A DNA stretch of 64,000 nucleotides from a virus: positions 32,001 to 96,000 of IMG/VR virus record IMGVR_UViG_3300020048_000023; one strand, given 5' to 3'. The notes under the pieces were generated by a model that saw only the letters and a list, made by a program, of their open reading frames with translations, did no database searches and was not told where the DNA came from. How positions within the stretch are numbered: position 1 is the first letter of the stretch; each line of letters starts with the position of its first letter. Positions 1-31,161 of this stretch are shown here, in pieces. The position numbers and the translations under genes are program-made.

Positions 1-2163
1 AATACGTCAGTCTTTCAACATTTGAAAGATACTGCGTATATTATGAACATACTATCACGCCACTTTAAGTTTAATAAGTGGGTGAGTAAAAATGGCGCAT
101 TATTGCACGACATAGGCAAATGCCACCCAGTATTTCAATCAAGGCTCAGTACACCGTATGACGGCTCCGACCTCTGGATAATACCGTTTAGACACGAAAT
201 ATCATCCATACTTTTTATCTCGTTATTTAAGCCAAAATACTGGGATATACTTATTGAACTTATTATTGGGCACCATAAATCTGTTTATCTACGGGGCGGA
301 AATGAAATAGGTAGTAACCATAAGGGGCTACTAACTTTAATAGCCAATAACCCAGACGTATTTGAACGCCACGCTGGAACGGAAGAGGAATGGAATGAGT
401 GGTCAAAAACAGCTTTATCTATACTTGGCTATCTTAAAATTAAAACTAAGCCTATTAGCTACAGCGAAGCCAGAGCCAACTATGATTACGTTGTATCGTA
501 TTGTAGAGAAATAAGGAAAACAGGTAAGGGTATATCTAAATGGCGCGGAATACTCAATGCCGCCGACCATATATCATCGCACCTTGATCTATTTAGGGAT
601 TCATTTGAATCAACTAAAAAAAGTATGTTTGTAAAGCCAGACGTTAGTGTTTATGACAAAATGGCTAATTCCTTATATCCTCTTTCGGTTATAGATATGA
701 AAAAGGAGAAAAAGCATAAGCATACACTTATTATAGCACCTACTGGGGCTGGTAAAACCCAAGCTCTTCTAAGGTGCGCAACTGGTAGAATATTTTATAT
801 TCTTCCGTTCCAAGCGGCAATTGACGCTATGTTTAGGCGTTTTAAACACGATCTAACAACAACAAACCCAAACTTGGCTATTTCTATACTTCACTCAAAA
901 TCGGTACCTATTATAGAAAGAGAGGGTACCGTAGCGGAAGCAGTACTGCGGGATAAAATTGGATGCGGACTGAAAGTAGCAACACCATACCAAATATCAA
1001 AAATACTTGTTGGGTCGTCTGGATTTGAGCAGACCATACTTGATATAAGCGGGCAGGATATAATAATGGATGAAATACACTCCTATAATAGAGAGGCTAA
1101 ATCTTTTATATTAACGCTTATTCGTGTTTTACTGCTATTTAATTGTCGTATACACTTCGGAACCGCCACACTTCCAACGGATTTAAAAAATAAGATCATT
1201 AAAATACTTGGCGGAAAAGATAACGTTGATATAATTGAATTAACGAGCGAGCAGCAAGACACATTTGATAGACATATAATTTATAAAAGAGATAGTTTTA
1301 CTGACTGTCTTCCAACTATAGACGAAGCAGTGGCTAATAAGAAAAAAATCTTGATAGTAGCTAATACTGTAGGCGTTGCCCAAAGAATATATAATGATAT
1401 ACTACAAAGGTATCCACATTATAAGTCGTCGCTACTTCACAGCCGATTCAGACGTAAAGATAGGTCTGTTAAAGAAAACGAATTGTTTGATAATAATGCT
1501 TGGAAGGACGGTGGTATTCTCGTAGCAACACAAGTGGTTGAGGTTAGCCTTGACATTAATTACGATGTATTATTTACCTATTGTGCTCCATTTGACGCAC
1601 TCATACAAAGAGGTGGTCGTATTAATAGAGATAGAAATAGACCCCCAGACCGTATTTGCCCCATATACGTAATAAAGACACGAATGAATCATACTAATCG
1701 GGGTGAAGTTATTAGAACCGAGCTTGGCGGTTATAACGAAGGTATAGTAAATGCCACGTGGAATATTTTAAAAGATGGCGAAATACTAAAAGAATCAAGC
1801 ATACAGGGGATGATTGATGCAATATACCCTAATACAGTGGATGATCAAAACCTTATCACAAACTGTATATTTGACGCAGATGGTAACTGTATTATGCAGA
1901 AGCTAACTAATCAAAAAAACGACATACTCGAACAGATATTCACCCAGTCCAATGATATCTTGATTTTGGAAAGCGACGTGGAAGAATATAGGAGAAATTA
2001 TAAATCCAGAGCCGAACTTGAAATACCAGTGTTCTATCTGTCAAGGCATATAGAGAATGTGCTTATACATAATGAGTTAGGTGAGCTAAAGAAAATGGAC
2101 TGCGGGCTCGAACCGTACATTTTACCCAATGCAAACTACAGCTTTGAACGCGGAATTATTTAA
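1..2163 (+). CDS. cas3: CRISPR-associated helicase/nuclease Cas3 (HD + SF2), 5'-truncated by the window edge
   Basis: HD motifs LLHDIGK, GHHK, AADH; helicase motifs APTGAGKT, DEIH, TAT, HSRF, ATQVVEVSLDI, QRGGRINR. The frame is open to position 1 (..FQHLKD), so the true start lies upstream. Confidence 0.95.
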   Translation, partial: NTSVFQHLKDTAYIMNILSRHFKFNKWVSKNGALLHDIGKCHPVFQSRLSTPYDGSDLWIIPFRHEISSILFISLFKPKYWDILIELIIGHHKSVYLRGGNEIGSNHKGLLTLIANNPDVFERHAGTEEEWNEWSKTALSILGYLKIKTKPISYSEARANYDYVVSYCREIRKTGKGISKWRGILNAADHISSHLDLFRDSFESTKKSMFVKPDVSVYDKMANSLYPLSVIDMKKEKKHKHTLIIAPTGAGKTQALLRCATGRIFYILPFQAAIDAMFRRFKHDLTTTNPNLAISILHSKSVPIIEREGTVAEAVLRDKIGCGLKVATPYQISKILVGSSGFEQTILDISGQDIIMDEIHSYNREAKSFILTLIRVLLLFNCRIHFGTATLPTDLKNKIIKILGGKDNVDIIELTSEQQDTFDRHIIYKRDSFTDCLPTIDEAVANKKKILIVANTVGVAQRIYNDILQRYPHYKSSLLHSRFRRKDRSVKENELFDNNAWKDGGILVATQVVEVSLDINYDVLFTYCAPFDALIQRGGRINRDRNRPPDRICPIYVIKTRMNHTNRGEVIRTELGGYNEGIVNATWNILKDGEILKESSIQGMIDAIYPNTVDDQNLITNCIFDADGNCIMQKLTNQKNDILEQIFTQSNDILILESDVEEYRRNYKSRAELEIPVFYLSRHIENVLIHNELGELKKMDCGLEPYILPNANYSFERGII

Positions 2164-2177
2164 CATCTAAAAATAAA

Positions 2178-2209
2178 TTTGGTAGATTCAAAAATTAGTT
2201 ATATATTTG
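2178..2209 (+). promoter_or_regulatory. Bacteroidota sigma70-type promoter (TTTG -33 / TAnnTTTG -7) upstream of cas8
   Basis: TTTGGTAGATTCAAAAATTAGTTATATATTTG. The same architecture recurs at about 9235, 10236, 21388, 22161, 27174, 29144, 32532, 33995, 36047, 40428, 49056, 53554, 55479, 60768 and 62458. Confidence 0.85.
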
Positions 2210-2228
2210 CCACGTTAATCCAAAACAT

Positions 2229-3566
2229 ATGGAAGCCATAAATTTAGGTAGAATACTTTTACGTCAATACAATAAGGTTAATTCAACGAATTACTCAGCA
2301 AAGGAGTTTTTTGAGAATCATTTTGAAGTGTTCCATAGCCCAAAGTCTGAAAAGAATTTTATAAGCATAACAAATAGCCCATTTCATAATAATGGTGGCA
2401 AAAAACCAAAACCATACGAAAAACGTATGGCTGAATATCTGGAAAAAATAGCGTCTGGTAATAGAACTACTTCAATAGGTCGTGATTTTCCAGCGGAAGG
2501 GGAATCACAAGCGACCAGATCACAGGTTGATATGAGAAACATAGACGCATTAACTACGGAAGATATCTATTTGGCTCAGATTGGTGATAATCTATTTGTT
2601 AACATAGAATCATATTCGGTCGGAATAGGGCACCCAGAAGTGTTGTATGAAATCTACCAAGGGTGGTTGGTATACCGAGATAAAATATTGGATAATACGT
2701 TTTACAATTACAAAGGCAACCAGTGTGATACGTGGAACGGTATATGGTTATTGGCTAATACCGAAGACCAATCAGTTGATATGACCGTAAATGATATAGT
2801 AAACAGCTATACGGCAAAGAAAAAAGATAAAAGCGGCAACGAAAAACCTATTGTTGATGAACATAAGTGTTTAAGGTTTGAATCAGTTCGCTGGCACCAA
2901 TTTTTTATTAACCTCGCGGTAAAGTATGCAGATGAATCATTTAACATTAATGTCAAATTATTTAGTGATACAAATAAAGCGTATGGTGATATTACCGTCG
3001 ACCTTAAAGACCTGCGTTACGTGTACGACTTCCTGAAATTGCATACCGAAATAACTGGTAGTAAAAGAGCGTATATTCAAAAGATATTTGAGTCTTGGGA
3101 TATAAAAAGCTTTCGGTATATACTTGAAGGAGATACCTTGGAAAAACATTGCTTTGAACCAAATAATTTTTATGATATCATTCATAATCTCAAACAAGAT
3201 AAAAAAGTTAAACAGAAAGATATAATTAATCTTAAAAACTACTACTTTATGATACTGAGTACCCCAGAAATAATAGCTACAACCGATAGACTATCAACGC
3301 AGTTAATTAATTTCGCCAAAAGTAAGGCTGGTATGAGAAATAGAATAACTGACGTTGAAAAGTTGGTTAATTCTTGGTCAGTGGCTCACTTTAGTAAGAA
3401 CTTAGCTGAAATGGCTAAAACTTATGAAGATGATTTTACAATCGATATATTGGATAATAACACTATTATACAGCTCAATAAGGACTGCTTCAATGTGTTT
3501 ATATCCCAGCTTAAACTTAAATTCTATTTATCCACCTCTAAATCAAACAAAAATGTTAAATTCTAA
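2229..3566 (+). CDS. Putative Cas8 large subunit (Bacteroidota type I-B-like)
   Basis: Lies between cas3 and cas7; the N-terminal GRILLRQYN..YSAKEFF..ITNSPF resembles Bacteroidota type I Cas8 from memory; helical C-terminus. Confidence 0.7.
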   Translation: MEAINLGRILLRQYNKVNSTNYSAKEFFENHFEVFHSPKSEKNFISITNSPFHNNGGKKPKPYEKRMAEYLEKIASGNRTTSIGRDFPAEGESQATRSQVDMRNIDALTTEDIYLAQIGDNLFVNIESYSVGIGHPEVLYEIYQGWLVYRDKILDNTFYNYKGNQCDTWNGIWLLANTEDQSVDMTVNDIVNSYTAKKKDKSGNEKPIVDEHKCLRFESVRWHQFFINLAVKYADESFNINVKLFSDTNKAYGDITVDLKDLRYVYDFLKLHTEITGSKRAYIQKIFESWDIKSFRYILEGDTLEKHCFEPNNFYDIIHNLKQDKKVKQKDIINLKNYYFMILSTPEIIATTDRLSTQLINFAKSKAGMRNRITDVEKLVNSWSVAHFSKNLAEMAKTYEDDFTIDILDNNTIIQLNKDCFNVFISQLKLKFYLSTSKSNKNVKF

Positions 3567-4692
3567 AAGATTAAGAATCAAACAGGTTATTTATTACAAT
3601 AACCCAACCCTATTTTGCGTGGGTAAAGAAGGGCAAAAACGAGTATATGATAAAACATATGGAAAATACCTTGCGTATTCGTCTGGGCAGCAACAAAAAA
3701 CTACCCGCGTAAACGAGGTGTGTGAATTGCTTGGTATACCACTTGCGGATTTTGTGTTTTACTACAATGAAAAGCACAAGCAAGCGTCAAAAGGTATTTC
3801 ACAAGACCCGAGGCACGTAGAGGCTATGACACGTGGGTATATGAATGTAACCACTAATAATATTAAACGGGAAAGTCCACTTAATATTAGTACTATGTTT
3901 CCAATACACCCATTATTGGTTGAATCCATCGATGATTTAATTGCCGTAGGTCACGGGGTAAGGGAAAAAAGTTTTACCCTTATACAGGAAAAGAAAAAGA
4001 CCAAAAAAGCTGGCGAGGATGATGATGAATCAGAAAAATCAGACGGCTCAAAGACAGAAGGTAAGTACGAAGAGGTTCCAAAAACAACCGATGAATACAA
4101 AAAATTTCTCGACGAAATGGCTGATACTCGAAAAAAAGGTATAGAACATAGTTTAGCTGGTGGTAAATTATTAACCCGTGGGGTGTTCGAAAGATATATT
4201 GAAATTGACCTAACCAGATTGTTCGCATTTAACAATGATATCTTACTTCCGAGCAAAGAGATTGCCGCTGAATATATGGACGCGATCATTAAGGACGGGT
4301 GGAAAGAAGTAGACACCAAATTGTATGGTAAAATGTTTATCGTACCAAAGTCAATACGCGATAAATATATCCCTGCAATTGCCGAAGCTCTGGTTATGGC
4401 TCTTCCAAACACTAATCAGTCCAGTTCATACTCAGTAGGCGAAATAGTTGCTACGGCGGTTAGTTATGACGCCTCGGAAAATTCATATGCAATTGTGTGC
4501 GAAGAAAATAATGAAACCGCTAATGTTATATTAGACAAGGATGCTGGTTCCAAATTATTCATCACGCCTATTGCCAAAAGTAGCAGGATATTCGCAGGGT
4601 ACGACCGTGAATCAGCTACCTCAAAGGCTAATAAAGAAGCCATTGCGTATATAACTCAGGAATTGCTAAACTTCGACTACGAGGGTATATAA
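3553..4692 (+). CDS. cas7: Cas7 backbone subunit (start re-called to ATG 3553)
   Basis: TLFCV..GQKRVYD..YSSGQQ.K, GYM..IKRESPL and GVFERYIEIDL resemble Bacteroidota type I Cas7; overlaps the cas8 stop; directly precedes the array. Confidence 0.8.
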   Translation: MLNSKRLRIKQVIYYNNPTLFCVGKEGQKRVYDKTYGKYLAYSSGQQQKTTRVNEVCELLGIPLADFVFYYNEKHKQASKGISQDPRHVEAMTRGYMNVTTNNIKRESPLNISTMFPIHPLLVESIDDLIAVGHGVREKSFTLIQEKKKTKKAGEDDDESEKSDGSKTEGKYEEVPKTTDEYKKFLDEMADTRKKGIEHSLAGGKLLTRGVFERYIEIDLTRLFAFNNDILLPSKEIAAEYMDAIIKDGWKEVDTKLYGKMFIVPKSIRDKYIPAIAEALVMALPNTNQSSSYSVGEIVATAVSYDASENSYAIVCEENNETANVILDKDAGSKLFITPIAKSSRIFAGYDRESATSKANKEAIAYITQELLNFDYEGI

Positions 4693-4710
4693 ACGTGAAA
4701 TAAGCCATTT

Positions 4711-4722
4711 TGTTCTTTGACA
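4711..4722 (+). promoter_or_regulatory. boxA-like antitermination element upstream of the CRISPR array
   Basis: TGTTCTTTGACA; the same motif occurs at 6312 (before the tRNAs) and 7685 (inside the tRNA cluster). Confidence 0.6.
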
Positions 4723-4767
4723 AATCTGGTGTAGTAAATTAATGTTTAAGGGGTTACACATAGGTAC

Positions 4768-6025
4768 ACTGTGCGTAACCCCATTCTGTAAGGAAATAAC
4801 AACATAATCGGTACATTTCTCTTAAACAATTGTACTGTGCGTAACCCCATTCTGTAAGGAAATAACAACTAACCATCGGGTTCTCCTTACCGTTCCCAAC
4901 TGTGCGTAACCCCATTCTGTAAGGAAATAGTAATACATATGCGGTTGAGTTTGCATTAGTTTTTATTGCGCATAAACCCATTCTGTAAGGAAATAATAAT
5001 CACTGACCAATTACCAGATCAGTCCAGTTAGAGTAACCCCATTCTGTAAGGAAATAACAACGAGTGATTTAAGGTGCCCGCCTCGAATACGACTGTGTGT
5101 AACCTCATTCTGTAAGGAAATAATAATTATGATAATTGAGCAGAGCCAGAGTCTTATACTGTGTGTAATCCCGTTCTGTAAGGAAATAATAAGTAGTAAA
5201 ATAAATGGCGCAATACCTTAAAAACTGCGCGTAACCCCATTCTGTAAGGAAATAATAATACACAAACGAAGGAGTAACCCATAACGTCAACTGTGTGTAA
5301 CCCTATTCTGTAAGGAAATAACAACATCGAAAAGATCAGGCAAATAGAAGCTTCAATTGTGCATAACCCAATTCTGTAAGGAAATAAAAACTTTTCGAAA
5401 GGGTTAAAGGTGTTGAACTATATGTAACCCTATTCTGTAAGGAAATAACAACTACCGACACCCTCGAACAAAGCTATTACCTACTGTGTGTAACCCTATT
5501 CTGTAAGGAAATAACAACTAATCGAAGTTGAACACATAAGCTCTAAAAACTGTGCATAACCCTATTCTGTAAGGAAATAACAACGACGGAATAATAAACC
5601 TCTGGTTGGAAAAACTGTGTGTAGCCCCATTCTGTAAGGAAATAATAATACATCGCAGGTAATCGCATTGCCAACTGTACGTAACCCTATTCTGTAAGGA
5701 AATAAAAATAGTTGTATTTGCACAGCGCCACAACCAGCAATGTGTGTAGCCCCATTCTGTAAGGAAATAACAATCAGAAACTCATTATGCTATGCTTAGC
5801 TAATATAACCTCATTCTGTAAGGAAATAAAAATAAGGAGCAATTCAAGAAGGTTGACTTAGATACGGTGCGTAACCACATTCTGTAAGGAAATAATAATA
5901 TGTACACCAGTGCAGTATCATCAGTGCACTGCGCATAACCCCATTCTGTAAGGAAATAATAATAATCAACACTTTAACCGAAAGATAAAACCATACATAA
6001 CCCTATTCTGTAAGGAAATTAAAAA
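4768..6025 (+). CRISPR. CRISPR array: 20 repeats of 36 nt (consensus ACTGTGYGTAACCCYATTCTGTAAGGAAATAAYAAY) and 19 spacers of 23-30 nt
   Basis: Repeats start at 4768, 4834, 4899, 4965, 5026, 5092, 5158, 5224, 5290, 5356, 5417, 5483, 5549, 5614, 5674, 5739, 5798, 5864, 5928 and 5990. Invariant core TTCTGTAAGGAAAT; unique spacers. Orientation is inferred from the cas genes and boxA. Confidence 0.97.
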
Positions 6026-6051
6026 TAATTTAAAGTTTTTTTCACAAAAGC

Positions 6052-6082
6052 TTGTTTTATTCAAATATTATGTCTACATTTG
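6052..6082 (+). promoter_or_regulatory. Promoter for the leader peptide / tRNA operon
   Basis: TTG..N..TACATTTG (-7 element at 6075-6082). Confidence 0.75.
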
Positions 6083-6123
6083 CAGCACTTTTTGAAACTA
6101 ACAACTATATATAAGAAAATACA

Positions 6124-6249
6124 ATGAAAAAGATCACCTACATAACCAGTTCCAATAACCTTATTCTGAAAGGAAATAACAATAGTTGTTTGGAAGCATC
6201 GTCAGAGGCGTTAGCCACTACGAATGGAATCGGTATGTACGTGAGGTAA
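6124..6249 (+). CDS. 41-aa putative attenuator leader peptide MKKITYITSSNNLILKGNNNSCLEASSEALATTNGIGMYVR
   Basis: ATG 6124 to TAA 6249, between the promoter and a terminator; contains the antiterminator strand and a run of codons matching the downstream tRNAs. Confidence 0.75.
   Translation: MKKITYITSSNNLILKGNNNSCLEASSEALATTNGIGMYVR
6148..6183 (+). repeat. Isolated degenerate CRISPR repeat inside the leader ORF
   Basis: TAACCTTATTCTGAAAGGAAATAACAAT matches about 25 of the last 28 nt of the array repeat. Confidence 0.85.
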
Positions 6250-6278
6250 AGAATTTTTGATTACCAGAGCTCGATCAG

Positions 6279-6312
6279 CCCGATTCCAAAAGAGTCGGGT
6301 TTTTTGTTTTTT
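6279..6312 (+). terminator. Intrinsic terminator (attenuator) before the tRNA cluster
   Basis: CCCGATTC-CAAAA-GAGTCGGG hairpin followed by TTTTTTGTTTTTT. Confidence 0.85.
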
Positions 6313-6340
6313 GTTCTTTGAATGTCTGGAAAAATATTGT

Positions 6341-6481
6341 GTGCGTCGTGGCGGAATTGGTATACGCGCTTGTCAGTGTACCCTACAAGGCAGGAATTGG
6401 GGAAAACAGGTGGACAACGGAAACTGCATTCCGTGGGCTTTATAGATTAAATCCGCGCTGGTTCGAGTCCAGCCGCGCACA
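6341..6481 (+). ncRNA. tRNA-like RNA with an expanded anticodon arm and a long variable region
   Basis: Leu-type D arm TGGCGGAATTGGTATACGC; T arm GCTGG-TTCGAGT-CCAGC; acceptor GTGCG(T)CG/CGCGCAC; TTGTC/GACAA stem enclosing about 38 nt. Confidence 0.65.
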
Positions 6482-6488
6482 CAAACAT

Positions 6489-6564
6489 GGGTCGTTAGCT
6501 TAGTCTGGCTTAAAGCGTCTGCCTTGCAAGCAGAAGAGCAAGGGTTCGAATCCCTTACGATCCA
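6489..6564 (+). tRNA. tRNA-Ala(TGC)
   Basis: Cloverleaf; TCTGC-CTTGCAA-GCAGA; G3:U70; no encoded CCA. Confidence 0.92.
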
Positions 6565-6593
6565 CAATACCGTCTGGAAATTCCAGACAAAAT

Positions 6594-6663
6594 GGGTCTG
6601 ATCCCGAAGGTAGGGAGCTTCACTTGCAATGAAGACATTTGGGTTCGATTCCCACAGTATCCA
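6594..6663 (+). tRNA. tRNA-Ala(TGC), atypical or possibly pseudo
   Basis: CTTCA-CTTGCAA-TGAAG anticodon arm and TGGG-TTCGATT-CCCA T arm; imperfect acceptor stem. Confidence 0.6.
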
Positions 6664-6668
6664 CAAAC

Positions 6669-6752
6669 GGTGCGTTATACAAGCGGTTCAAAGTAGGCAG
6701 CCCTTCAAGCTGTCCCTGTAAAGGTTCGTGGGTTCGAATCCCACACGCACTA
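6669..6752 (+). tRNA. tRNA-Glu(TTC)-like with C33 and a long variable arm
   Basis: Acceptor GGTGCGT/ACGCACT; GCAGC-CCTTCAA-GCTGT; variable arm CCCTGTAAAGGTTC; canonical T arm. Confidence 0.7.
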
Positions 6753-6963
6753 CACTAATAAAAATCGTCTGGAATTTCCAGACAAATTAAAAAAAGAAAG
6801 GAAATATTATGCTAAAAGCACTAAACACGAAAGGATAGAAAACCGAAAAAAAGAGATCGGAAGCCGAGAAGAAAGAAGGCGGCAAAAACACTCTAATAAG
6901 TTCATTGAAATTTTTAACTTTTTCTTACATTCATACCGCAAAGGAATACTGGATTTCTGCGGT

Positions 6964-7272
6964 ATGGAAGTAAAAGTCACGTACAACGTGAACGGTAAAG
7001 ATGGTATGGTGTCTTTCAAAGAATACGAAAACGGTGTTATGAAGCTGTATAATTTAAGCACGCGGCACCCAAATATATTGAAAGGGGTTATTATCGGTAA
7101 AAAAAGCTGGGGTCTTTGGTTACAGGAATGGACTGACGGAATATCTGAGGGGTCATTCACAACCAGAGAAATCATATCTCAGTTCGATGGTATAAAAATA
7201 CCTGAATCGCTAATGACGGACTTTTATAACGTGTTACATAAAAAAATAATGGCGCGTTCGTCTAGGGGTTAG
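6964..7272 (+). CDS. Hypothetical protein (frame open upstream; 3' end runs into tRNA-Glu)
   Basis: 102-aa ORF in a tRNA spacer. Confidence 0.5.
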   Translation: MEVKVTYNVNGKDGMVSFKEYENGVMKLYNLSTRHPNILKGVIIGKKSWGLWLQEWTDGISEGSFTTREIISQFDGIKIPESLMTDFYNVLHKKIMARSSRG

Positions 7273-7322
7273 GACGTTTGGTTTTCAGCCAAAAGACAGG
7301 GGTTCGATTCCCCTATGCGCTA
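7251..7322 (+). tRNA. tRNA-Glu(TTC)
   Basis: Cloverleaf; TTTGG-TTTTCAG-CCAAA; T arm AGGGG-TTCGATT-CCCCT. Confidence 0.92.
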
Positions 7323-7359
7323 CCTTGAATAAAATCGTCTGGATATTCCAGACAAAACT

Positions 7360-7447
7360 GGAAGATGAAACTGGCGTGGGCTGGTCGCGGTCTTGAAAAC
7401 CGAGGGGACGGGTAAAACTGTCTGGTAATCGTGCTATCCTTCTTCCG
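7360..7447 (+). tRNA. tRNA-Ser(TGA), non-canonical 8/4 fold
   Basis: GCGGT-CTTGAAA-ACCGA; 8-nt acceptor GGAAGATG/CTTCTTCC; 4-bp T stem GGTA-ATCGTGC-TATC; long variable arm; G73. Confidence 0.75.
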
Positions 7448-7499
7448 CTTAGCCGAAACAACTGCGAATATATAAATAAGCGGTTGTTTTGGACAAAAT

Positions 7500-7585
7500 G
7501 GGGCTGTGCTGTAACTGGTAGCCAAGACGGACTTAAAATCCGTTGTGCCGTAAGGCACGTGTGGGTTCGAATCCCACCAGCCCTA
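7500..7585 (+). tRNA. tRNA-Leu(TAA)
   Basis: ACGGA-CTTAAAA-TCCGT; long variable arm; canonical T arm. Confidence 0.93.
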
Positions 7586-7593
7586 CAATAATT

Positions 7594-7679
7594 GGAAGCG
7601 TGGGAGAGTGGTTTAATCCACCAACTTGGAAAGTTGGCAGCCTCGCAAGGGCTCGTAGATTCGAATTCTACCGTTTCCG
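7594..7679 (+). tRNA. tRNA-Ser(GGA)
   Basis: CCAAC-TTGGAAA-GTTGG; long variable arm; G73. Confidence 0.92.
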
Positions 7680-8363
7680 CTAATAGTTCTTTGACATTTT
7701 TATGTTAATAATATTAATAATAATTTGTAGGTATTTGTTGGCTCTATCTGGTTTAAAGTATTTCAAACCAGAAGCATCAACAATACACATTTCAATACCG
7801 CGTTCGATACACGCTTGAAATTTACGTGTATCGTTATTTTGAATTTGAGATAGTTTATCGGTTCCGTAAATGGGCTCATAATGAAATATACCATTCAATT
7901 CAAAAGCCAGTTTAAGTGACGGTATGTAAATATCCAATTCGGAGTTGATTGCGTCTTTTTTGTTGTAGTGTATTTCTAATAACGGAAATTGAATGGGTAA
8001 TTCCTGTTCCAGATAAATTTCGAGTTTTGAACGCCTGTTACCAGTTGTTTTATGCGTATTGTTATACGTAGCCGCGCAGGATTTAGTGCAGAAATCGTTT
8101 CCTTTAGTTGATTTTTGCTGCGAAAGTAGTTTACTAAAATTTTTACCGCAATTAGCACACGTGGTTTGTTTTCTGGTTCTTTCGTATACACCCCAGCATT
8201 TCATTGAGCAAAAATCACCAATATCTAATTTATTAGGATTAAAAACGTCTTGTATTCTCTTTTTAGTTAAATAAAAAGTTTTTTCACATTGTTTACATTG
8301 GCACGGAAGCTTATCATATGATTTTGCCGTACTAAATTCTAATTCGTTAAATAGCGCTTTCAT
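7680..8363 (-). CDS. Putative free-standing homing endonuclease (Zn-finger repeats + PD-(D/E)xK/Vsr-like domain) inserted antisense in the tRNA cluster
   Basis: CxxC..FCSxxC repeats; ELDIYIPSLKLAFELNGIFHY..D..K..C motif; start re-called to ATG 8363. Confidence 0.75.
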   Translation of the reverse strand: MKALFNELEFSTAKSYDKLPCQCKQCEKTFYLTKKRIQDVFNPNKLDIGDFCSMKCWGVYERTRKQTTCANCGKNFSKLLSQQKSTKGNDFCTKSCAATYNNTHKTTGNRRSKLEIYLEQELPIQFPLLEIHYNKKDAINSELDIYIPSLKLAFELNGIFHYEPIYGTDKLSQIQNNDTRKFQACIERGIEMCIVDASGLKYFKPDRANKYLQIIINIINIKMSKNY

Positions 8364-8440
8364 TAATTGTTTTATTATAAATAGTCTTTGGCGGAGCAAA
8401 ATTCGTATTTTCGAAAAATAAACTTACCGCTAAATAAATT

Positions 8441-8524
8441 GCCTTAGTGGGGGAATTGGTTATACCCAGCAGTTTCAAAAACTGCCGCGCTTAGCGCATA
8501 CAGATTCGACTTCTGTCTGAGGCA
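8441..8524 (+). tRNA. tRNA-Leu(CAA)
   Basis: GCAGT-TTCAAAA-ACTGC; long variable arm; acceptor GCCTTAG/CTGAGGC. Confidence 0.9.
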
Positions 8525-8531
8525 CATATAG

Positions 8532-8617
8532 GGAAGGTGAAACCGCCGAGGGGTGGTCGATGCCTGCTAAGCATACGGTACCCGTAAGGGTATGGGAATC
8601 GTGCTCTCCGCCTTCCG
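8532..8617 (+). tRNA. tRNA-Ser(GCT), non-canonical 8/4 fold
   Basis: GATGC-CTGCTAA-GCATA; 8-bp acceptor GGAAGGTG/CGCCTTCC; 4-bp T stem GGGA-ATCGTGC-TCTC. Confidence 0.8.
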
Positions 8618-8625
8618 CAAAAAAT

Positions 8626-8696
8626 GCCGTCTAAGTCAATTGGGTTGGCGCTGGTCTGCAAAACCAGTTTGGTGAGTCCGATTCTCACAGACGGCT
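8626..8696 (+). tRNA. tRNA-Cys(GCA)
   Basis: CTGGT-CTGCAAA-ACCAG; acceptor GCCGTCT/AGACGGC; U73. Confidence 0.88.
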
Positions 8697-8795
8697 CAAA
8701 ATTACCGTTGTAACGGTAACATTTAACAATAAAATTACCTATGGGTAGTTTTAGCTCTAATTCAGAGCTTAATGTTCGCTGTAGCTGGAAATTAC

Positions 8796-9053
8796 TTACT
8801 TTACCTGAGATAGGTAAATAGTGTTATTTGAAAGGTTGACAGTCGTATCATTGTAGGATATGAGCGATACGCGGGCTTGTTTGTTTGGTCGGTATTCAAA
8901 TTTACCGTCCATGTCTGTATATACTGTATTTCCATCCACCTTAACGGCAACGCCGCATAGTGTTTCGTGAGTTATTGCGTCTTTTACCTGATAGGTTTTA
9001 GGTGTGGAGAATAGTTGCAAGATGAATGCGAAAATAACGAATGTCTTTACCAT
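8796..9053 (-). CDS. Small secreted protein with a carboxypeptidase-regulatory-like (TonB receptor N-terminal) domain
   Basis: Hydrophobic signal peptide followed by VKDAITHETLCGVAV..TDMDGKF..VSLISY. Confidence 0.6.
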   Translation of the reverse strand: MVKTFVIFAFILQLFSTPKTYQVKDAITHETLCGVAVKVDGNTVYTDMDGKFEYRPNKQARVSLISYNDTTVNLSNNTIYLSQVK

Positions 9054-9139
9054 ACTTAATGTTTTAAAATAAGTATGAGTTGAATTAAAGAAAGTCTAAC
9101 TTACAGATTAAGTTACTGTTACCTACAGGTTAAATAATT

Positions 9140-9224
9140 GGAAGATTGACCGAGTGGAAAGGTACCCGCCTCGAAAGCGGTGGTCGGGGTAATTCCCGCG
9201 CAGTTTCGATCACTGCATCTTCCG
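9140..9224 (+). tRNA. tRNA-Ser(CGA)
   Basis: CCCGC-CTCGAAA-GCGGT; acceptor GGAAGAT/ATCTTCC; G73; long variable arm. Confidence 0.88.
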
Positions 9225-9281
9225 CAAAATTTTATTTGGTTATTACTATTTTTAGTTTTATATTTGCAAAAAAATATTTAT

Positions 9282-9872
9282 ATGATGGCTCGGGAACCTA
9301 TGAAAACCACTAAAAAGCAAATTGTTGCTTATTGGGTAAATAAAGGTATTGACGAATGTGAGTTAAATTTTGACTGGTCTGAAGCTGATGGTGTGTGCTG
9401 GAATTGCGGGCATTTAACAAAACACGCTCAAAGATGCCATATCATACCTGATATGTTAGGTGGTGAAGATACACCAAGTAATTACGTTTTATTATGTGAA
9501 GAATGTCACGAAGAAGCCCCGAATATAAATAATTCGGAAGCTATGTGGGATTGGATTAAACACAATAAAAACGATTTTGGTATGTATAATACTTATAAAG
9601 CGTTTAAAGCGTTTAAAGCATTTAAAAAACGAAATGGATTTGACTTTTTTGAAAAAGCGATATACATCACAAATTTTGCTGAATTATTTGTTAATGGGTT
9701 TAAAAATATTGGACTGCACGGAGCGAAGCTAACCATTAGTACTTATATATATATGTTTGAAGATATAATAAAAAAAGGTATTTATAGTGATATCCCACAG
9801 AATATTGGTTTTTTTGAAATATCTGATTTAGTAGAAAAGTCAAATTTAGTGAAAAAGGAAGTACCGCAATAA
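9282..9872 (+). CDS. HNH endonuclease (start re-called)
   Basis: CWNCG..RCHIIP..LGG.D..NYVLLCEECH; lies downstream of the promoter at 9235-9266. Confidence 0.85.
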   Translation: MMAREPMKTTKKQIVAYWVNKGIDECELNFDWSEADGVCWNCGHLTKHAQRCHIIPDMLGGEDTPSNYVLLCEECHEEAPNINNSEAMWDWIKHNKNDFGMYNTYKAFKAFKAFKKRNGFDFFEKAIYITNFAELFVNGFKNIGLHGAKLTISTYIYMFEDIIKKGIYSDIPQNIGFFEISDLVEKSNLVKKEVPQ

Positions 9873-9876
9873 CCGA

Positions 9877-10203
9877 TTATTTACCTAATAGTTTATTTGC
9901 TTCTTTTTCCCCAGCTTTAAGCTCGGTTTTTTGTTCGCCGTCCAGTTTAAGAAGCATGGCTTCAAATTCACCAACGTGTGTTTTTTCTTCTTTGGCTACG
10001 TCCAGCATAAGTTTTTTAACTTGTGGGTCTGTGGCTTTGCTTGCCATTTGTTCATATAGGCTAACGGCGTCCAGTTCGGAAATAATAGCCATACGCAGCA
10101 CCTGTTTATTAACATCTTTTCCTGATATGTCGGTGGGAACGGCTGAGGTTATCTCATTGAGCTGCCTAAACCTGTTCAGTTCTTCGAATAAAAGCTTATC
10201 CAT
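9877..10203 (-). CDS. Ferritin-like (encapsulin-cargo Flp / rubrerythrin-like) protein
   Basis: LRMAIISELDAVSLYEQ..DVAKEEKTHVGEF diiron motifs. Confidence 0.85.
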   Translation of the reverse strand: MDKLLFEELNRFRQLNEITSAVPTDISGKDVNKQVLRMAIISELDAVSLYEQMASKATDPQVKKLMLDVAKEEKTHVGEFEAMLLKLDGEQKTELKAGEKEANKLLGK

Positions 10204-10284
10204 AATGCGTTATTTTCTATAAATATTACGTAACATTTGGTAGTGTCGAATATTAGTTATATATTTGCAGCTAAATAAAAAAAT

Positions 10285-10752
10285 ATGAAGACCGCAGTAG
10301 TAAACAGAATTATCAACGAGAAGGGCGAAATGCTCTTTCTGCTCAGGACTACCAGACCATTCGGATGGGGTTTAGTGGGTGGTAAAACAGAACCCGATGA
10401 CAAAGATGCTCTTGCGGCTTGCATTCGTGAAACTGAGGAAGAAACAGGTATTATGCTGCAACGAAGTCAGGTGGTATTAATTGGCGAAGAAAAGTCGATT
10501 AATGGCACCCCTATTACCGTGTTTGAAACCGTACTGGATTATACCCCAAGTGTCAAGCGTGACCCAAGGGAGCACCTTAATTACGTTTGGATTAAAACAC
10601 ATACATATAAATATAAACGGAATTATACCACCGATATTTACAGCCGTTCTTTTGCAGGCAAAACGCTTGATTTCGTTGATCTGGGTCGCGAAGATTTTAT
10701 CCCAGAATTTCTAACCCGTCCGTTCGGTCAAAGACCAACCGAAGACGAATAA
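10285..10752 (+). CDS. NUDIX hydrolase
   Basis: Nudix box GGKTEPDD..ACIRETEEETGI. Confidence 0.9.
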   Translation: MKTAVVNRIINEKGEMLFLLRTTRPFGWGLVGGKTEPDDKDALAACIRETEEETGIMLQRSQVVLIGEEKSINGTPITVFETVLDYTPSVKRDPREHLNYVWIKTHTYKYKRNYTTDIYSRSFAGKTLDFVDLGREDFIPEFLTRPFGQRPTEDE

Positions 10753-10762
10753 TACTAAAAAT

Positions 10763-11137
10763 ATGTCAGAATTACACAAAAAATGGGTTGACGCGCTGGA
10801 CGTAGCGACGTCAAGGCGGTGTTCCAATCATATGGAGTTATCACCGAGAATAGCTAACGCTATGATTGGGGCTTCGGAGTTTCAAAACCGACTACTGAAA
10901 AAGTTGCAAGAAAAAATCGACTTATATCCGCAGTCAGTTTTCGAAGAAAATTCTCCTATTATATCTGCCGACGGCTACAGGGAGATAATAAAAATGGTAC
11001 AAAACTTGGAGCCGCACGTACCAGTTATGGCGCATTCGACTACAATACGTAATGGGTGCCCAAATTGTGGCGGTGATGTTTTTGACGGAACTGGTACTGG
11101 CTGGCGCATATGCCATAAATGCGGATTAATGTTTTAA
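10763..11137 (+). CDS. Hypothetical protein with a C-terminal Zn ribbon
   Basis: CPNCGG..CHKCG. Confidence 0.65.
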   Translation: MSELHKKWVDALDVATSRRCSNHMELSPRIANAMIGASEFQNRLLKKLQEKIDLYPQSVFEENSPIISADGYREIIKMVQNLEPHVPVMAHSTTIRNGCPNCGGDVFDGTGTGWRICHKCGLMF

Positions 11138-11205
11138 GTATTTATTTTTTGTGGGGTGATGTTTATATTTATAGGAAACCAATAAATATTTAAAACCTTA
11201 CAACA

Positions 11206-11283
11206 ATGAATACTTGGGTAACCGTCCGTTTTATGTTGCGCCGTATCGCGCATTGCTCTTCTTGCACACAAGGGGGCTGTTAA
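11206..11283 (+). CDS. 25-aa Cys-containing small peptide MNTWVTVRFMLRRIAHCSSCTQGGC
   Basis: ATG after an A/C-rich initiation region and a TATTTAT motif (11166); followed by three hairpins. Confidence 0.5.
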   Translation: MNTWVTVRFMLRRIAHCSSCTQGGC

Positions 11284-11311
11284 CTCAGGCGGGTAACGCC
11301 CGCTTTCAATG

Positions 11312-11379
11312 TTCTGTAACTTCGGGATAAAGAATCAATTATTAGGGCTGCGTAACTTCGGGATAAGTAAGCCCTTTTT
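11312..11379 (+). ncRNA. Two tandem hairpins carrying GTAACTTCGGGATAA (23S rRNA helix-62-like); the second ends in a U run
   Basis: 15-nt direct repeat at 11316-11330 and 11352-11366, closed by different stems (TTCT/AGAA and AGGGCT/AGCCCT). Confidence 0.6.
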
Positions 11380-11401
11380 ATTTATACTAATATTTATTAA
11401 T

Positions 11402-12820
11402 ATGGCAAATAGATATGTAATGTATAATAGTACACAGAAGGTCGTACTTAAAAAAGATGTTGAATCGGGGAATATACGTTTAGTACATTTGAATGATGTA
11501 GCCAGTCCGTTTGTACTTCCATTCGAAAATTATTTAAGAATGGCTGTGGTTCGTAACACTCAGTTAGATAATTATAACGTTGCTGGGGAGAATCGTTTCA
11601 CCATTGCATCAATAGACACCACTAATAGAAGGATTGTTCTTAATCAAGCCATTCCAGAAGTGGTAAAAACTGGCGTTGCGGTATATGGAAGCGGTTATAA
11701 ATGGGGATTATGCAAAGATTATGCAAATGCAAAACTTGTTGAGTATTTATCTGGTACAACTTTAACATATTCGGCTACTAAAACTGTTGGTACCTTGGCA
11801 GCTGGAAACACAGTAACATTTTTTAACCCGTTTATTAATTATGCATTTACACAACTTACAGGCATTGCGGCTTTAGGGTCAGCTGGTACTTGGAATTCAC
11901 TTGGTATGCAAACAAATGGTATGTGGCGCGGGGTCGACGGTGTTTATAGAATGATTGTTGGCGGAACCAATACAAATGGAAACCCTATTAGATTAGGCTT
12001 GATGACAAGCAACGACTTAAATACGTGGTCATATGCTAATGGGGGTAATTATATGTATACAGGTGGTGAGGGGGTATTTAATATACCTGGGGTTTCTATA
12101 GCTAATTCCGTTGTTTACCCTATGTCTAATCCTATTAAACTTGCAGATAATTCTTACCTTTCATTTTTTACGACGGTTCCATCAACTGGTCTGGCGGCTA
12201 TAGCGCCAGTATATTTTGATGATAACTTCATAGTTACTTCCGTTGGGGCTAATTTAATTATTCCTGATTATCCCATAGACTACGTTACGATATCTGGCGG
12301 TGCCGTTATGCTTAACGGTGTTTGTCATCTTTATTTTTGCGATAGGTTAAACTCTACTCCATCAACGTGGAAGCTTATTGAGGCAATTATTCCAGATTTA
12401 AGTACAATGGAAGTTACCGATTCTAATATAGTTTTATCAAATAATACCGCGGATGTTTGGCATAATCTTCATACAGACGCTATTGTACCGTTTTTATGGA
12501 ATAACACAATATATTTATGGGCATTTGGAACAGGTATAAACACTACTAATAGTATTTACCAAGGGAATAGGGAGTTAGGTCTTATAAAACGTAATCAAGA
12601 CGGTAGTTTTACCATTGACCCAAGATCGCCATTATACTTAAATCCTATTTTAGGAAACTATTTATGGGACTCTGCAATGTCTATTGCAGCTGACCATACA
12701 GGCGGTGGTTGTTCCATGTGGGCTGACGGTCAAGATATGCATATGTTTTCTACTATGAATGCTTCGTCAAACACATATAAGATTTTTCACACAAAAATAT
12801 TATTAAAAGACCAAACATAA
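11402..12820 (+). CDS. Putative virion-associated protein with a beta-propeller / glycosidase-like C-terminus (start re-called)
   Basis: G/T/S/N-rich beta composition; Asp-box-like TSNDLNTW; TATTTAT upstream. Confidence 0.55.
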   Translation: MANRYVMYNSTQKVVLKKDVESGNIRLVHLNDVASPFVLPFENYLRMAVVRNTQLDNYNVAGENRFTIASIDTTNRRIVLNQAIPEVVKTGVAVYGSGYKWGLCKDYANAKLVEYLSGTTLTYSATKTVGTLAAGNTVTFFNPFINYAFTQLTGIAALGSAGTWNSLGMQTNGMWRGVDGVYRMIVGGTNTNGNPIRLGLMTSNDLNTWSYANGGNYMYTGGEGVFNIPGVSIANSVVYPMSNPIKLADNSYLSFFTTVPSTGLAAIAPVYFDDNFIVTSVGANLIIPDYPIDYVTISGGAVMLNGVCHLYFCDRLNSTPSTWKLIEAIIPDLSTMEVTDSNIVLSNNTADVWHNLHTDAIVPFLWNNTIYLWAFGTGINTTNSIYQGNRELGLIKRNQDGSFTIDPRSPLYLNPILGNYLWDSAMSIAADHTGGGCSMWADGQDMHMFSTMNASSNTYKIFHTKILLKDQT

Positions 12821-23281: not shown

Positions 23282-23753
23282 TTTACCCGAAGATGCTATT
23301 GATCACTACCTGTATGACGCCACTAAATTACTTCTGGACGACGATAAAAAACGGACTCCCGAAGTAATTTATGGTTATACAAAAAATACCATATATACCT
23401 ACCCTAACTGGGACATAGTGAGAAACTACGACCAGTTTGTTGAGTATATAAAAAATAACCCTATGCCTAAGCTGATAAGTTTCGATCATGACCTTGCAGA
23501 TATTCACTACAAAACATTCTTAACGCCACCGACAGAGGCTGAAAAGCAAGCCGCTTGGACTGCATACCACGAACGTACTGACGAACGTGAAATGACAGGC
23601 TACGACTGCCTGAAGTGGTTGACTGAATATTGCCACGATAATACGATCATATTCCCGCAAATTCTGATTCACACGATGAACGTCGTAGGGTACAATAATA
23701 TGGTGTTCTATTACCGTGCCGCGTTGCGCAATAAGTTTATAAGAATTAACTAA
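23265..23753 (+). CDS. Cyclic-phosphate-processing receiver-like domain protein
   Basis: LLLDD.KRTP..WDIVRNY..ISFDHDL..TGYDC..IHTMN.VG. Confidence 0.75.
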   Translation: MNSTPDLPEDAIDHYLYDATKLLLDDDKKRTPEVIYGYTKNTIYTYPNWDIVRNYDQFVEYIKNNPMPKLISFDHDLADIHYKTFLTPPTEAEKQAAWTAYHERTDEREMTGYDCLKWLTEYCHDNTIIFPQILIHTMNVVGYNNMVFYYRAALRNKFIRIN

Positions 23754-23916
23754 GTATGAACCCAGTTAAAGTTGAAGAAATTGAAACACTTATAAAACAA
23801 AAGCTTAATATAACTGATCCAATAGAAGAACCAATACAGCTACATATAGCTGAATTACTCGAAGAGCCTATGGACGACCCGCAAATGCCGCTCAAACGCT
23901 ATTCACTCACTGATTA

Positions 23917-24645
23917 ATGGCTGATATATTCCTAGCATCTACTCCGCCTTTTGACGCTGAGATCAATGCCGATCCTCAGCGCCAAAAGGATTATATCAAC
24001 CTTAAATCAATGTTGAGAAATTGGGACGTGGAGTTAACCGAAATGGACGCCTATTTCAGACATGCCGATACTGAGGAAGAAGCCGAAGAGTTTGAATACG
24101 CCAGCCATCGCATACCAGTAAAGAAGTCTATAGCAATAAACAACTATGCTAATATATATGCCAAATTTAAGCTATTTGACGACGTACAGGTTATTGAAAA
24201 CAATAGGGTTTTATATCTGGGTCAGATACGCAGGGTTGTGGTAGCTTTATCTTTCAAAGATATTGAGAAAGCCAGAAACATACAGCCTAGGGATATTCAA
24301 TTTGTTCACCAAACTGACACCATTTATCATATTGAGAATGAATTTATTTATATCATTTACAGCCACAGCAACACTATTAGCAAGAGCGGCTACAATAAAA
24401 GGTCACCACGCATAATAATGAAAGTTCCGCGTGTTATGCACCGTTTTTGCCCCGTATGTATAACATACGATAAACCTTTAATAGACACCGTTATAGGTAA
24501 AGCTGACAAGGTTATATGTCCTGACTGCAATCAACTGCTCAGGGATATGTTCGGCGACGACTACGTGACTAATACAATGAAATTCGATACCATTTCAGAC
24601 CTACCAGAATACGACCGTATCTGGAAAATTTCAAGCAACCTGTAA
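23917..24645 (+). CDS. Hypothetical protein (C-terminal CxxC pairs)
   Basis: 242-aa ORF; CPVC..CPDC. Confidence 0.6.
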   Translation: MADIFLASTPPFDAEINADPQRQKDYINLKSMLRNWDVELTEMDAYFRHADTEEEAEEFEYASHRIPVKKSIAINNYANIYAKFKLFDDVQVIENNRVLYLGQIRRVVVALSFKDIEKARNIQPRDIQFVHQTDTIYHIENEFIYIIYSHSNTISKSGYNKRSPRIIMKVPRVMHRFCPVCITYDKPLIDTVIGKADKVICPDCNQLLRDMFGDDYVTNTMKFDTISDLPEYDRIWKISSNL

Positions 24646-24648
24646 TGA

Positions 24649-25380
24649 TTATTCGTATTGATACCCAGCGAATTTTTTATTTAAACTCAGAACCCGCCAC
24701 CTAATAGTAACCATAGGTATGTTTAATATTGTGGAAGCATAACTGGCTGATCGGTATTTTACACCGTCAATTATTATTGGTTTATTTTGTTCACCAAAGT
24801 ACTTTCCGATGCGTTGAGCGGCTATTTTATCTTTAGCCTCTTTTGTATGTGTTTTTTCGTAGAAGGGGTTTTTTTCCTTATTACGATCTCTACATTCACG
24901 GCAGGTCTTATTTATTGGTGCTATTTCTTTACCACATTTACAATATTTAACTGAGCTTCCGTTTCTCCAATTTGGGTTTAATTCTTGAGGACGCGAAAAT
25001 TTAAACTTTTTTTCTTCAGCGGTCATAGAGTCAAATGTTAATTTAACCGTAGTTCGAATACGTTCAATTATATCAATTTTATCTGGATTTTTACTTAAAT
25101 TATCCCCGCCGCTGGCTTTCAACCCTATATTATATGCTGGGTTCTTATCTAAATAATGCTGTTCAGTTTGCAGTAATAAGTCGAACGTGCATTCTTCAAC
25201 CAATTCAAATGTGAAGTTTTCGTTACCATATTTATCCCAAGCCCGTTGTAGGTGGGAGTTATGGTGTTTATTATTTTGCAATTCATTGCGGTGTCGAATT
25301 AATCTTTTATCAACATCTTTAGACGAGCCGTAATATGCGTCGCCGTTAGCTGTATTAACTATTCTATATACGCCTATCAT
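24649..25380 (-). CDS. GIY-YIG homing endonuclease with a NUMOD3-type DNA-binding region
   Basis: GVYRIVN..YYGSS..R..H..HHNSHLQRAWDKYG; NPFYEKTHTKEAK; start re-called. Confidence 0.9.
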   Translation of the reverse strand: MIGVYRIVNTANGDAYYGSSKDVDKRLIRHRNELQNNKHHNSHLQRAWDKYGNENFTFELVEECTFDLLLQTEQHYLDKNPAYNIGLKASGGDNLSKNPDKIDIIERIRTTVKLTFDSMTAEEKKFKFSRPQELNPNWRNGSSVKYCKCGKEIAPINKTCRECRDRNKEKNPFYEKTHTKEAKDKIAAQRIGKYFGEQNKPIIIDGVKYRSASYASTILNIPMVTIRWRVLSLNKKFAGYQYE

Positions 25381-25492: not shown

Positions 25493-26173
25493 ATGAAGCT
25501 TATTAAACCGTCTTATGAAATCATCAGTAAAATAGATACTGATTACCTACTTCAGCTGATTGAAGAAGCTGGGAGAACTTGTTACAAAAGTGAAGATAAA
25601 ATAACACCTACTTCAGCCAAGGATTTTATTAAAATGATACTTGGAAGACACCACGAATCTGTTATTGAACACGGCGGTATGACCGTAAGATTTATAGTAG
25701 ATCGTGGGGTGTCGCACGAATTAGTCCGCCATAGATTAGCATCATTTTCGCAAGAAAGTACACGTTATTGCAATTATTCAAAGGATAAATTTGACAATCA
25801 GATCACATTTATACTACCTAATTGGATAAATGAAGATGATTTGGGTAAAGCCATAAATTGGAAAGACGGCGACCCGTCATATACGCCAGCAATAGAAGCC
25901 GCTGACATATGGCATTCACATATGTCAATTCTGGAAGGTGCGTATAATGACCTTATAAAATTAGGGTGGCAGCCACAACAAGCACGATCGGTGCTTCCAA
26001 ACTCACTTAAAACTGAAATAGTAGTGACGGCTAATTTCAGGGAGTGGCGCACAATATTCAAACAAAGATGTTCGTCTGCGGCACACCCGCAAATGCGCGA
26101 AGTAATGATACCTTTATTATCAGAGGTAAAAGAACTGGTGCCAGTAATATTTGACGATATTACTACGGACTAA
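25493..26173 (+). CDS. thyX: FAD-dependent thymidylate synthase
   Basis: HESVIEH; RGVSHELVRHRLASFSQESTRY; ARSVLP. Confidence 0.96.
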   Translation: MKLIKPSYEIISKIDTDYLLQLIEEAGRTCYKSEDKITPTSAKDFIKMILGRHHESVIEHGGMTVRFIVDRGVSHELVRHRLASFSQESTRYCNYSKDKFDNQITFILPNWINEDDLGKAINWKDGDPSYTPAIEAADIWHSHMSILEGAYNDLIKLGWQPQQARSVLPNSLKTEIVVTANFREWRTIFKQRCSSAAHPQMREVMIPLLSEVKELVPVIFDDITTD

Positions 26174-26196
26174 TAAGTATCTAATACCTACTATTT

Positions 26197-26349
26197 ATGA
26201 AATGCCCACACTGCAACTCGGAGTTAACTTATAAGTTAACCCAGTACAAGAACGAGAAAAATAAACTTGTTAAAATTTACCGTTGCGTGAATTGCCAAGG
26301 AAACATTGTTGTTCCGCCAAAAGAACCAATAAAAACTAAAACAAACTAA
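26197..26349 (+). CDS. Small Zn-ribbon protein (50 aa)
   Basis: MKCPHCNS..YRCVNC read directly. Confidence 0.6.
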   Translation: MKCPHCNSELTYKLTQYKNEKNKLVKIYRCVNCQGNIVVPPKEPIKTKTN

Positions 26350-26350
26350 T

Positions 26351-27172: not shown

Positions 27173-27219
27173 ATTTGGTTAATCCAAAATTAGGTTGTAT
27201 CTTTGCAAAAAATAAGACA

Positions 27220-31144: not shown

Positions 31145-31161
31145 TCCTAATCTTAACAACA

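Follow-up and report, generated by a model that had tools for sequence, protein, structure and literature searches.

Cas1-Cas2 integrases set both the repeat length and the spacer length of CRISPR arrays. The repeats, Cas6 with the CRISPR-associated complex for antiviral defense (Cascade), and the integrase are believed to form, within one CRISPR type, a co-evolving set. Adaptation in trans has already been shown for II-C with type VI and for I-E with IV-A3. In Flavobacterium columnare, the II-C Cas1 provides new spacers to the VI-B array, which has no cas1 or cas2 (Hoikkala et al. 2021, PMC8092290). Both the II-C and the VI-B array of this species have 36-bp repeats, and they have in common a leader-distal GTTGT (ACAAC-3' when read in the orientation of the VI-B transcript; PMC8092290). 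The VI-A system of Listeria seeligeri also acquires spacers via II-C (Margolis and Meeske, bioRxiv 10.1101/2024.10.25.620265). Among mobile elements, phage CRISPR systems are mostly without Cas1, Cas2 and Cas4 (Al-Shayeb et al. 2020, PMC7162821), and IV-A3 systems on plasmids make use of the host's I-E adaptation machinery (reviewed in PMC11656645). We analyzed a CRISPR-Cas locus at the beginning of a 64,000-nt stretch of viral DNA (the window), which comprises bases 32001-96000 of a 160,910-bp IMG/VR virus record (IMGVR_UViG_3300020048_000023, G000 below). Like the VI-B and VI-A loci, it has an effector without adaptation genes, and like the huge-phage and IV-A3 systems, which have been proposed or shown to depend on host adaptation, it consists of effector and array without Cas1, Cas2 or Cas4. 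We propose that an intact phage I-B interference module operates on an array of the II-C/VI-B family, with spacers probably supplied in trans by a host Cas1-Cas2 that makes 36-nt repeats and 30-nt spacers (36/30). We give this reading as a whole about an even chance; it draws on direct observations of the gene set with its intact motifs, of the anatomy of the array, of the likeness of the repeat, of a sister lineage and of a pattern of constraint.

The I-B systems of Bacteroidota, such as those of Segatella copri, Parabacteroides gordonii and Hallella multisaccharivorax, have the same five genes as the phage in the same order, with full-length matches, and their Cas3 likewise has both HD and helicase domains. 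However, the phage proteins are only 23-41% identical to theirs, and the phage record is without cas4, cas1 and cas2. Three genes lie on the + strand of the window and lead into the array. The first, cas3 (Cas3b, HD nuclease and helicase, 741 aa; PADLOC Cas3b, E=3e-214), occupies positions 1-2163, and its start at G000 31938 lies 63 nt upstream of the window edge. It is followed by cas8b at 2229-3566 (large Cascade subunit, 445 aa), a full-length match to PADLOC Cas8b PDLC01511 (E=2.7e-50), and by cas7b at 3553-4692 (Cascade backbone; PADLOC Cas7b, E=1.8e-50). A longer cas7 open reading frame (ORF) opens at 3424; the product as called, P0001, has 379 aa. The array begins 75 nt after cas7. Cas3 also matched TIGR01587 (E=3.5e-56) and TIGR01596 (E=2.4e-14). 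Its motifs were all kept, including HD (residues 56-57), the GAGKT Walker A motif (272), DEIH (378) and QRGGR of motif VI (557).

The remaining two genes were found just outside the window. Upstream of cas3 are cas6b (G000 30734-31420; PADLOC Cas6b, E=1e-45) and cas5b (G000 31427-31981; PADLOC Cas5b, E=5e-43 to 6e-43). The I-B interference set of Cas6, Cas5, Cas3, Cas8b and Cas7 is thus complete, with every protein full length by PADLOC. For comparison, genes were mapped by tblastn in 80 cellular loci that encode relatives of the phage Cas7. The phage order, cas6-cas5-cas3-cas8-cas7, is the standard order in these 80 loci. The phage Cascade is therefore complete and not minimal, because cas5 and cas6 lie directly upstream of the window in the standard order of the lineage. 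The original prediction, made from the window alone, had correctly described the run of cas3, cas8 and cas7 into the array, the retained HD and helicase motifs of Cas3, 36-nt repeats ending in ATAACAAC with a modal spacer of 30 nt, and a window free of cas1, cas2 and cas4. Its missing cas5 turned out to be an artefact of the window edge, and the minimal Cascade without Cas5 that it had proposed was rejected.

In the cellular I-B loci, cas4b-cas1b-cas2b come after cas7, and the array is next. No Cas1, Cas2 or Cas4 was detected by Pfam profiles in the whole phage record, which is about 67% complete (CheckV; the full phage would be about 240 kb), and the lineage's own Cas4b, Cas1b and Cas2b gave no tblastn match in it. 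The cas4-cas1-cas2 genes that mark I-B loci beside the effector genes are therefore absent from the phage record. The nearest relative of the phage Cas7 (41% identical) belongs to a sister lineage represented by three metagenome contigs (L101-L103), which have the same operon and Cas proteins 38-51% identical to those of the phage (38% for Cas8b). All other relatives of Cas7 were about 30% identical or less; the phage Cas7 as the only query retrieved no relatives from IMG/VR. The sister operon also had no adaptation genes beside it, with Cas1 sought within 21 kb. The incomplete record and this limited distance leave some room for another explanation, namely a divergent I-B lineage with its own repeat, whose arrays are made by a lineage-specific Cas1-Cas2-Cas4 located elsewhere in the genomes or lost independently. 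In that case, convergence or chance would account for the resemblance to VI-B and II-C repeats described below, as well as for the 36/30 geometry. We consider this a serious but rather unlikely alternative. Against it, no relative among the 549 cellular ones exceeds about 32% identity, and repeats of 29-30 nt are found at every one of the 80 best.

The repeats of these cellular arrays differ clearly from those of the phage. Arrays beside the 80 relatives have 29-30-nt repeats ending in GGAATTGAAAY and spacers of 34-36 nt, compared with 36 and 30 nt in the phage. The 8-nt handle, predicted as ATAACAAC in the phage, is ATTGAAAY in Bacteroidota I-B. When the phage repeat was aligned with 42 I-B repeats, the scores equaled those of its own shuffles (z about 0). 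A 3'-anchored comparison with I-B repeats was marginal (p=0.05-0.07), and the GGAA(A)T...AAC 3' end loosely resembles the I-B GGAATTGAAAC; both would favor a divergent I-B origin, as would the occurrence of 36-37-nt repeats in other I-B branches. The repeat matched no CRISPR-DR family of Rfam at E up to 10, and an exact search for a repeat pair in IMG/VR found no match. By these comparisons, the phage repeat is not the I-B repeat of its Cas lineage.

A second jumbo-phage contig (L099, IMGVR_UViG_3300045988_163480, 237 kb) carries cas6-cas5-cas3-cas8-cas7 at 5222-11851. Its operon leads directly into an 11-repeat array with a canonical 30-nt I-B repeat, and the record has no Cas1. Three loci from metagenome-assembled genomes (L028, L030 and L033) have the same cas7-to-array layout. 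L099 could borrow a host I-B integrase.

The array at 4768-6025 on the + strand comprises 20 regular 36-nt repeats whose consensus has ATAACAAC at its 3' end. A degenerate 21st repeat at 6148-6183 (+ strand), with 10 mismatches to repeat 1, stands 122 nt past the array in the next regulatory region. Eleven of the 19 spacers are 30 nt long, four are 29 nt, and the remainder are 23-28 nt. The spacer lengths form two clusters, of 29-30 nt and 23-26 nt, and the step of about 6 nt corresponds to one Cas7 subunit. Identity of the first two repeats, together with the strongest degeneration in the last two, fits a leader on the cas7 side and transcription of the + strand. The repeats are very heterogeneous. 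Nineteen distinct sequences were counted among the 21, and none equals the majority consensus, compared with a median of 98% of repeats identical to the consensus in canonical I-B arrays (n=39). The substitutions comprise 60 transitions and 24 transversions. A 3' CAAC is present in 8 of the 21 copies, including the first two. Folding of the phage repeat was no better than that of shuffled sequence. Conservation within the array was uneven, at 93% for the 3' 22 nt of the repeat, 83% for the 5' 14 nt and about 40% for the spacers.

This heterogeneity could indicate that the array, and perhaps the whole module, is a non-functional relic that is drifting. The variable spacers of 23-30 nt, the sister units with deleted parts of the repeat (see below), and the lack of targets in the protospacer searches are compatible with decay. 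We nevertheless regard a relic as improbable, because the five ORFs are intact in two lineages at 38-51% identity, with catalytic motifs kept. The 3' part of the repeat and a block of the leader are also conserved between the lineages, and the phage's own promoters precede both gene blocks.

The leader (4693-4767, + strand) contains a block, TGTTCTTTGACA at 4711-4722, which we take to be boxA-like and which is kept in the sister leader. This 12-mer occurs four times in G000, always on the + strand, compared with zero occurrences of the reversed control. The other copies, at G000 15911, 17325 and 39685, lie near the leaders of tRNA clusters. Their positions suggest Nus-type antitermination of the untranslated RNA operons of the phage, by analogy with boxA.

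We then compared the phage array with class 2 arrays. VI-B repeats are 36 nt long, with paired 5'-GUUG and CAAC-3' ends and a U-rich loop, and are separated by 30-nt spacers (Smargon et al., bioRxiv 10.1101/092577). The phage array has this geometry. Pattern searches of 401 and 301 Bacteroidota genomes yielded nine 36/30 arrays as comparators: one verified VI-B1, one probable VI-B, three orphans with VI-B-like repeats and four beside Cas9. The verified VI-B1 locus (G330) encodes Cas13b (E=4e-181; NCBIfam 6e-224) and Csx27. The phage repeat was identical at 22 of 36 positions to that of G330, at 24 of 36 to that of the probable VI-B array (G609) and at 19-20 of 36 to those of the orphans. The likeness was limited to the orientation of the Cas13b transcript; the reverse complement matched at 13-15 of 36. 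It also extended to the 27 interior positions that lie outside the search pattern. Here the phage repeat matched VI-B-type repeats at 12-17 positions, including 15 of 27 for G330 (p=0.0008) and 17 of 27 for G609 (p=0.0001) against 20,000 shuffles, and VI-B-type repeats match one another at 14-18. A likeness as high as that among VI-B repeats themselves, in one orientation only and including the interior positions, argues against chance resemblance in a divergent I-B lineage.

The Cas9-linked 36/30 arrays (L141 and L146-L148) gave a similar picture, as three of the four matched the phage repeat at 18-23 of 36 positions, again in one orientation only. The sister repeat matched VI-B-type repeats at 22-23 of 36 and one Cas9-linked repeat, in the opposite orientation, at 25 of 36. 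A covariance model built from the VI-B-type repeats alone gave the phage repeats 11-15.5 bits, on the + strand only, and the Cas9-linked repeats 17-23 bits, and it scored none of about 270 canonical I-B repeats. When only arrays were searched, the phage repeats had E values of 0.009-0.08, compared with 1.1 or more (at most 7 bits) for an I-B array. The modest scores of the model are a point in favor of a divergent I-B lineage.

Three observations concern the comparators themselves. Directly upstream of the 15-repeat 36/30 array of G609, which has a VI-B-like repeat, lies a gene for a 1080-aa protein (L143:6685-9927). Its alignment to the verified Cas13b was confined to the surroundings of the N-terminal HEPN motif (E=5e-4), and it matched no Cas13b model of PADLOC or NCBIfam; the protein may be a divergent Cas13b-like effector. 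With the Cas13b of G330 as tblastn query, no effector was detected beside four orphan 36/30 arrays. In G622, a TnpB/Cas12f-like gene of 577 aa (L144:7925-9658, E=5e-55) adjoins an orphan array that has 3 repeats of VI-B-like sequence.

The resemblance to VI-B therefore comprises the 36/30 units, transcription from leader to array, the leader-distal ACAAC and a repeat identity of 19-24 of 36 positions. The phage repeat thus has both traits associated with II-C acquisition in trans, the 36-nt length and ACAAC at the leader-distal end. In contrast to VI-B, the phage effector is a class 1 Cascade with the DNA-targeting Cas3, it is carried by a phage and not by a cell, and the defining 5'-GUUG is replaced by ACUG in the phage and AUUG in the sister. 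Because this GUUG is absent and shuffled sequence folds as well as the real one, the phage repeat resembles the II-C/VI-B family but, as far as its sequence tells, is no bona fide Cas13b repeat.

The same resemblance raised the possibility that the array transcripts serve, or decoy, a host Cas13b or Cas9, besides or instead of the phage Cascade. The unit of 30 + 36 = 66 nt is identical in geometry to the VI-B CRISPR RNA (crRNA) (bioRxiv 10.1101/092577), the identity to VI-B-type repeats holds in the right orientation, and some repeat variants can form a VI-B-like bulged terminal stem. However, the repeat lacks GUUG and a favorable fold, and its 5' 14 nt drift (63-83% conserved across both lineages) and are lost in some sister units, yet Cas13b binds the repeat in full. 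Neither Cas13b (no match to NF038190) nor Cas9 is encoded in the phage record. Matches to Cas9 were limited to model positions 513-595, in ORFs of 149-189 aa, and we read these short stretches as HNH-type domains. We consider service to a host class 2 effector, or a decoy role, very improbable.

The sister lineage provided a view of how the array has evolved. Its array starts about 70 nt after cas7, with repeats of 36 nt and spacers of 30 nt. Over its 3' 22 nt (CATTCTGTAAGGAAATAACAAC) the sister repeat is identical to that of the phage, and the 5' 14 nt match the phage at 8 positions only. Both leaders contain a TTTTGTTCTTTGACA block, located some 50 nt ahead of repeat 1. No spacer is common to the two arrays, and their flanks are unrelated. 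Given that cas7 is followed by a conserved leader and then directly by the array in both lineages, the layout without adaptation genes looks ancestral and seems to predate the lineage split, which argues against a divergent I-B lineage that lost its adaptation genes independently. The 5' halves of the repeats are more alike within one array than between lineages. Since this and the lack of shared spacers indicate building after the split, we conclude from the sequences that the arrays are post-split products made without local adaptation genes.

Within the arrays of the two lineages, the 3' 22 nt of the repeat were 93-98% conserved. In a type I-B system, this stretch would contain the site of Cas6 cleavage and the 5' handle of 8 nt. 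Selection acts on these 22 nt, the only strongly constrained part of the repeat, a pattern that fits use by Cas6 and Cascade and not use by Cas13b; such constraint, compared with the spacers at about 40%, is also hard to reconcile with a relic. In the sister array at L102:11250-12650, several units are only 54-56 nt long, with about 12 nt missing from the 5' end of the repeat and the 3' 22-24 nt intact. These shortened units form a natural deletion series for the part of the repeat that is needed.

Taken together, these features suggest a mechanism in which the phage supplies interference and the host supplies adaptation. The two gene blocks, cas6-cas5-cas3 and cas8b-cas7, would each be expressed behind their own phage promoter of Bacteroidota type, and the array would most likely be co-transcribed with cas8-cas7 through the boxA-like leader. 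The predicted site of Cas6 cleavage in each 36-nt repeat lies 8 nt from the 3' end, so that a crRNA would consist of ATAACAAC as 5' handle, a spacer of 30 nt and a 3' part of 28 nt. The crRNAs would load Cascade and recruit Cas3 to the DNA of targets that are presumably competitors or the host. A host 36/30 Cas1-Cas2 of II-C type would have built the arrays in trans and would extend them occasionally. We favor a II-C-type integrase because the only 36/30 integrase loci verified here in Bacteroidota are Cas9-linked, and units of 30/36 are what this lineage's I-B integrases produce. This step is tentative, and we put it somewhat short of an even chance. In contrast to VI-B and VI-A, acquisition in trans is known here by inference only. 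The pairing of a type I effector with a class-2-like array, noted in the original prediction, thus stands and is better supported than before. Its suggestion that host class 2 machinery feeds the array gained support from the class 2 geometry, the Cas13b-like repeat (which held against real repeats), the ACAAC end and the arrays built after the split; the acquisition step itself stays conditional. Its further idea, that the crRNAs program a host class 2 effector, is disfavored by the missing 5'-GUUG and by the drifting and sometimes deleted 5' 14 nt. As evidence that would speak against a hybrid, it had named cas5, cas6, cas1 and cas2 just upstream together with an ordinary I-B repeat. The first two are indeed there, but cas1 and cas2 are not, and the repeat does not group with the I-B repeats of its own lineage.

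Several points weigh against acquisition by a host class 2 integrase. No host was identified, and no host array with the phage repeat was present in the 401 Bacteroidota genomes. The phage 22-mer, allowing up to 3 mismatches, gave 17 single matches in these genomes, similar to the reversed control, and no arrays. GenBank phages held no protospacer for the array (one chance match, E=0.4). Three spacers searched against IMG/VR, and the spacers searched against the phage's own genome and all loci compared, also gave none. Spacer acquisition must be rare at best, because the repeats are so heterogeneous. II-C acquisition uses a protospacer-adjacent motif (PAM) that is set apart from the protospacer, and type I interference needs an adjacent PAM; a motif selected by II-C acquisition may therefore not satisfy a type I Cascade. 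Adaptation modules of type V-A also have repeats of about 36 nt. Adaptation genes could lie in the third of the phage genome that the record does not cover. The covariance scores, besides being modest, were not significant across 246 kb (E 1.4 or more), and G330 is the only VI-B comparator with a firmly verified Cas13b.

In the huge-phage systems, the IV-A3 plasmids and L099, the repeat resembles that of a host system whose type is identical or related, whereas here a class 1 effector stands on a repeat of a class 2 family. A non-exhaustive literature search found no earlier report of a class 1 effector with a II-C/VI-B-family repeat. One possible history, which we would not call likely, is that the phage re-tuned its I-B Cascade-Cas3 to a repeat of this family, with the integrase of a host Cas9 system supplying the spacers. 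If true, this would be the first class 1/class 2 hybrid CRISPR system, in which a virus arms its own DNA-degrading effector with the adaptive immune memory machinery of its host. The repeat would then split into an integrase half (length and leader-distal end) and an effector half (the 3' 22 nt), and phages could exploit this two-way functional split. Should the arrays belong instead to a divergent I-B lineage, the locus would be a phage-borne I-B system without adaptation genes, of a kind already described for huge phages. The locus also provides a natural mutagenesis map of the repeat positions needed by I-B Cas6 and Cascade, and a compact I-B system with 30-nt spacers suited to reconstitution.

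The surroundings of the locus were consistent with a phage setting. The window contains eight tRNA genes, RtcB, a Dda-like helicase, an RNA ligase and NAMPT. A promoter of Bacteroidota type precedes cas8 at 2170-2210 (+ strand), with TTTG, about 19 nt, and then TAnnTTTG. It is one of 35 copies in G000, all on the + strand, of a 41-nt element with the consensus AAATTTGGTAGnnTCAAAAAnTAGTTGTATATTTGC, each about 20-30 nt 5' of an ATG. Examples are found at G000 30675 (before cas6), 34170 (before cas8), 87471 and 148899. The element fits the Bacteroidota promoter consensus, with TTTG at -33 and TAnnTTTG at -7, and the 35 copies look like one temporal class of phage promoters. Because this phage promoter precedes both cas6 and cas8, the CRISPR module belongs to the phage's own transcription programme. 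The sequence features point to a large (giant) phage as the source, and the promoter type and the taxonomy of the Cas relatives to a Bacteroidota host.

Further genes of potential interest lie upstream of the cas operon. They encode a TROVE/Ro60-vWA protein at L009:11690-13129 (G000 23690-25129) and a 502-aa protein at L009:13929-15437 (G000 25929-27437) with a weak Csx1/Csm6-like CARF match (E=7e-6). A DEDDh exonuclease gene is located at L009:15734-16258.

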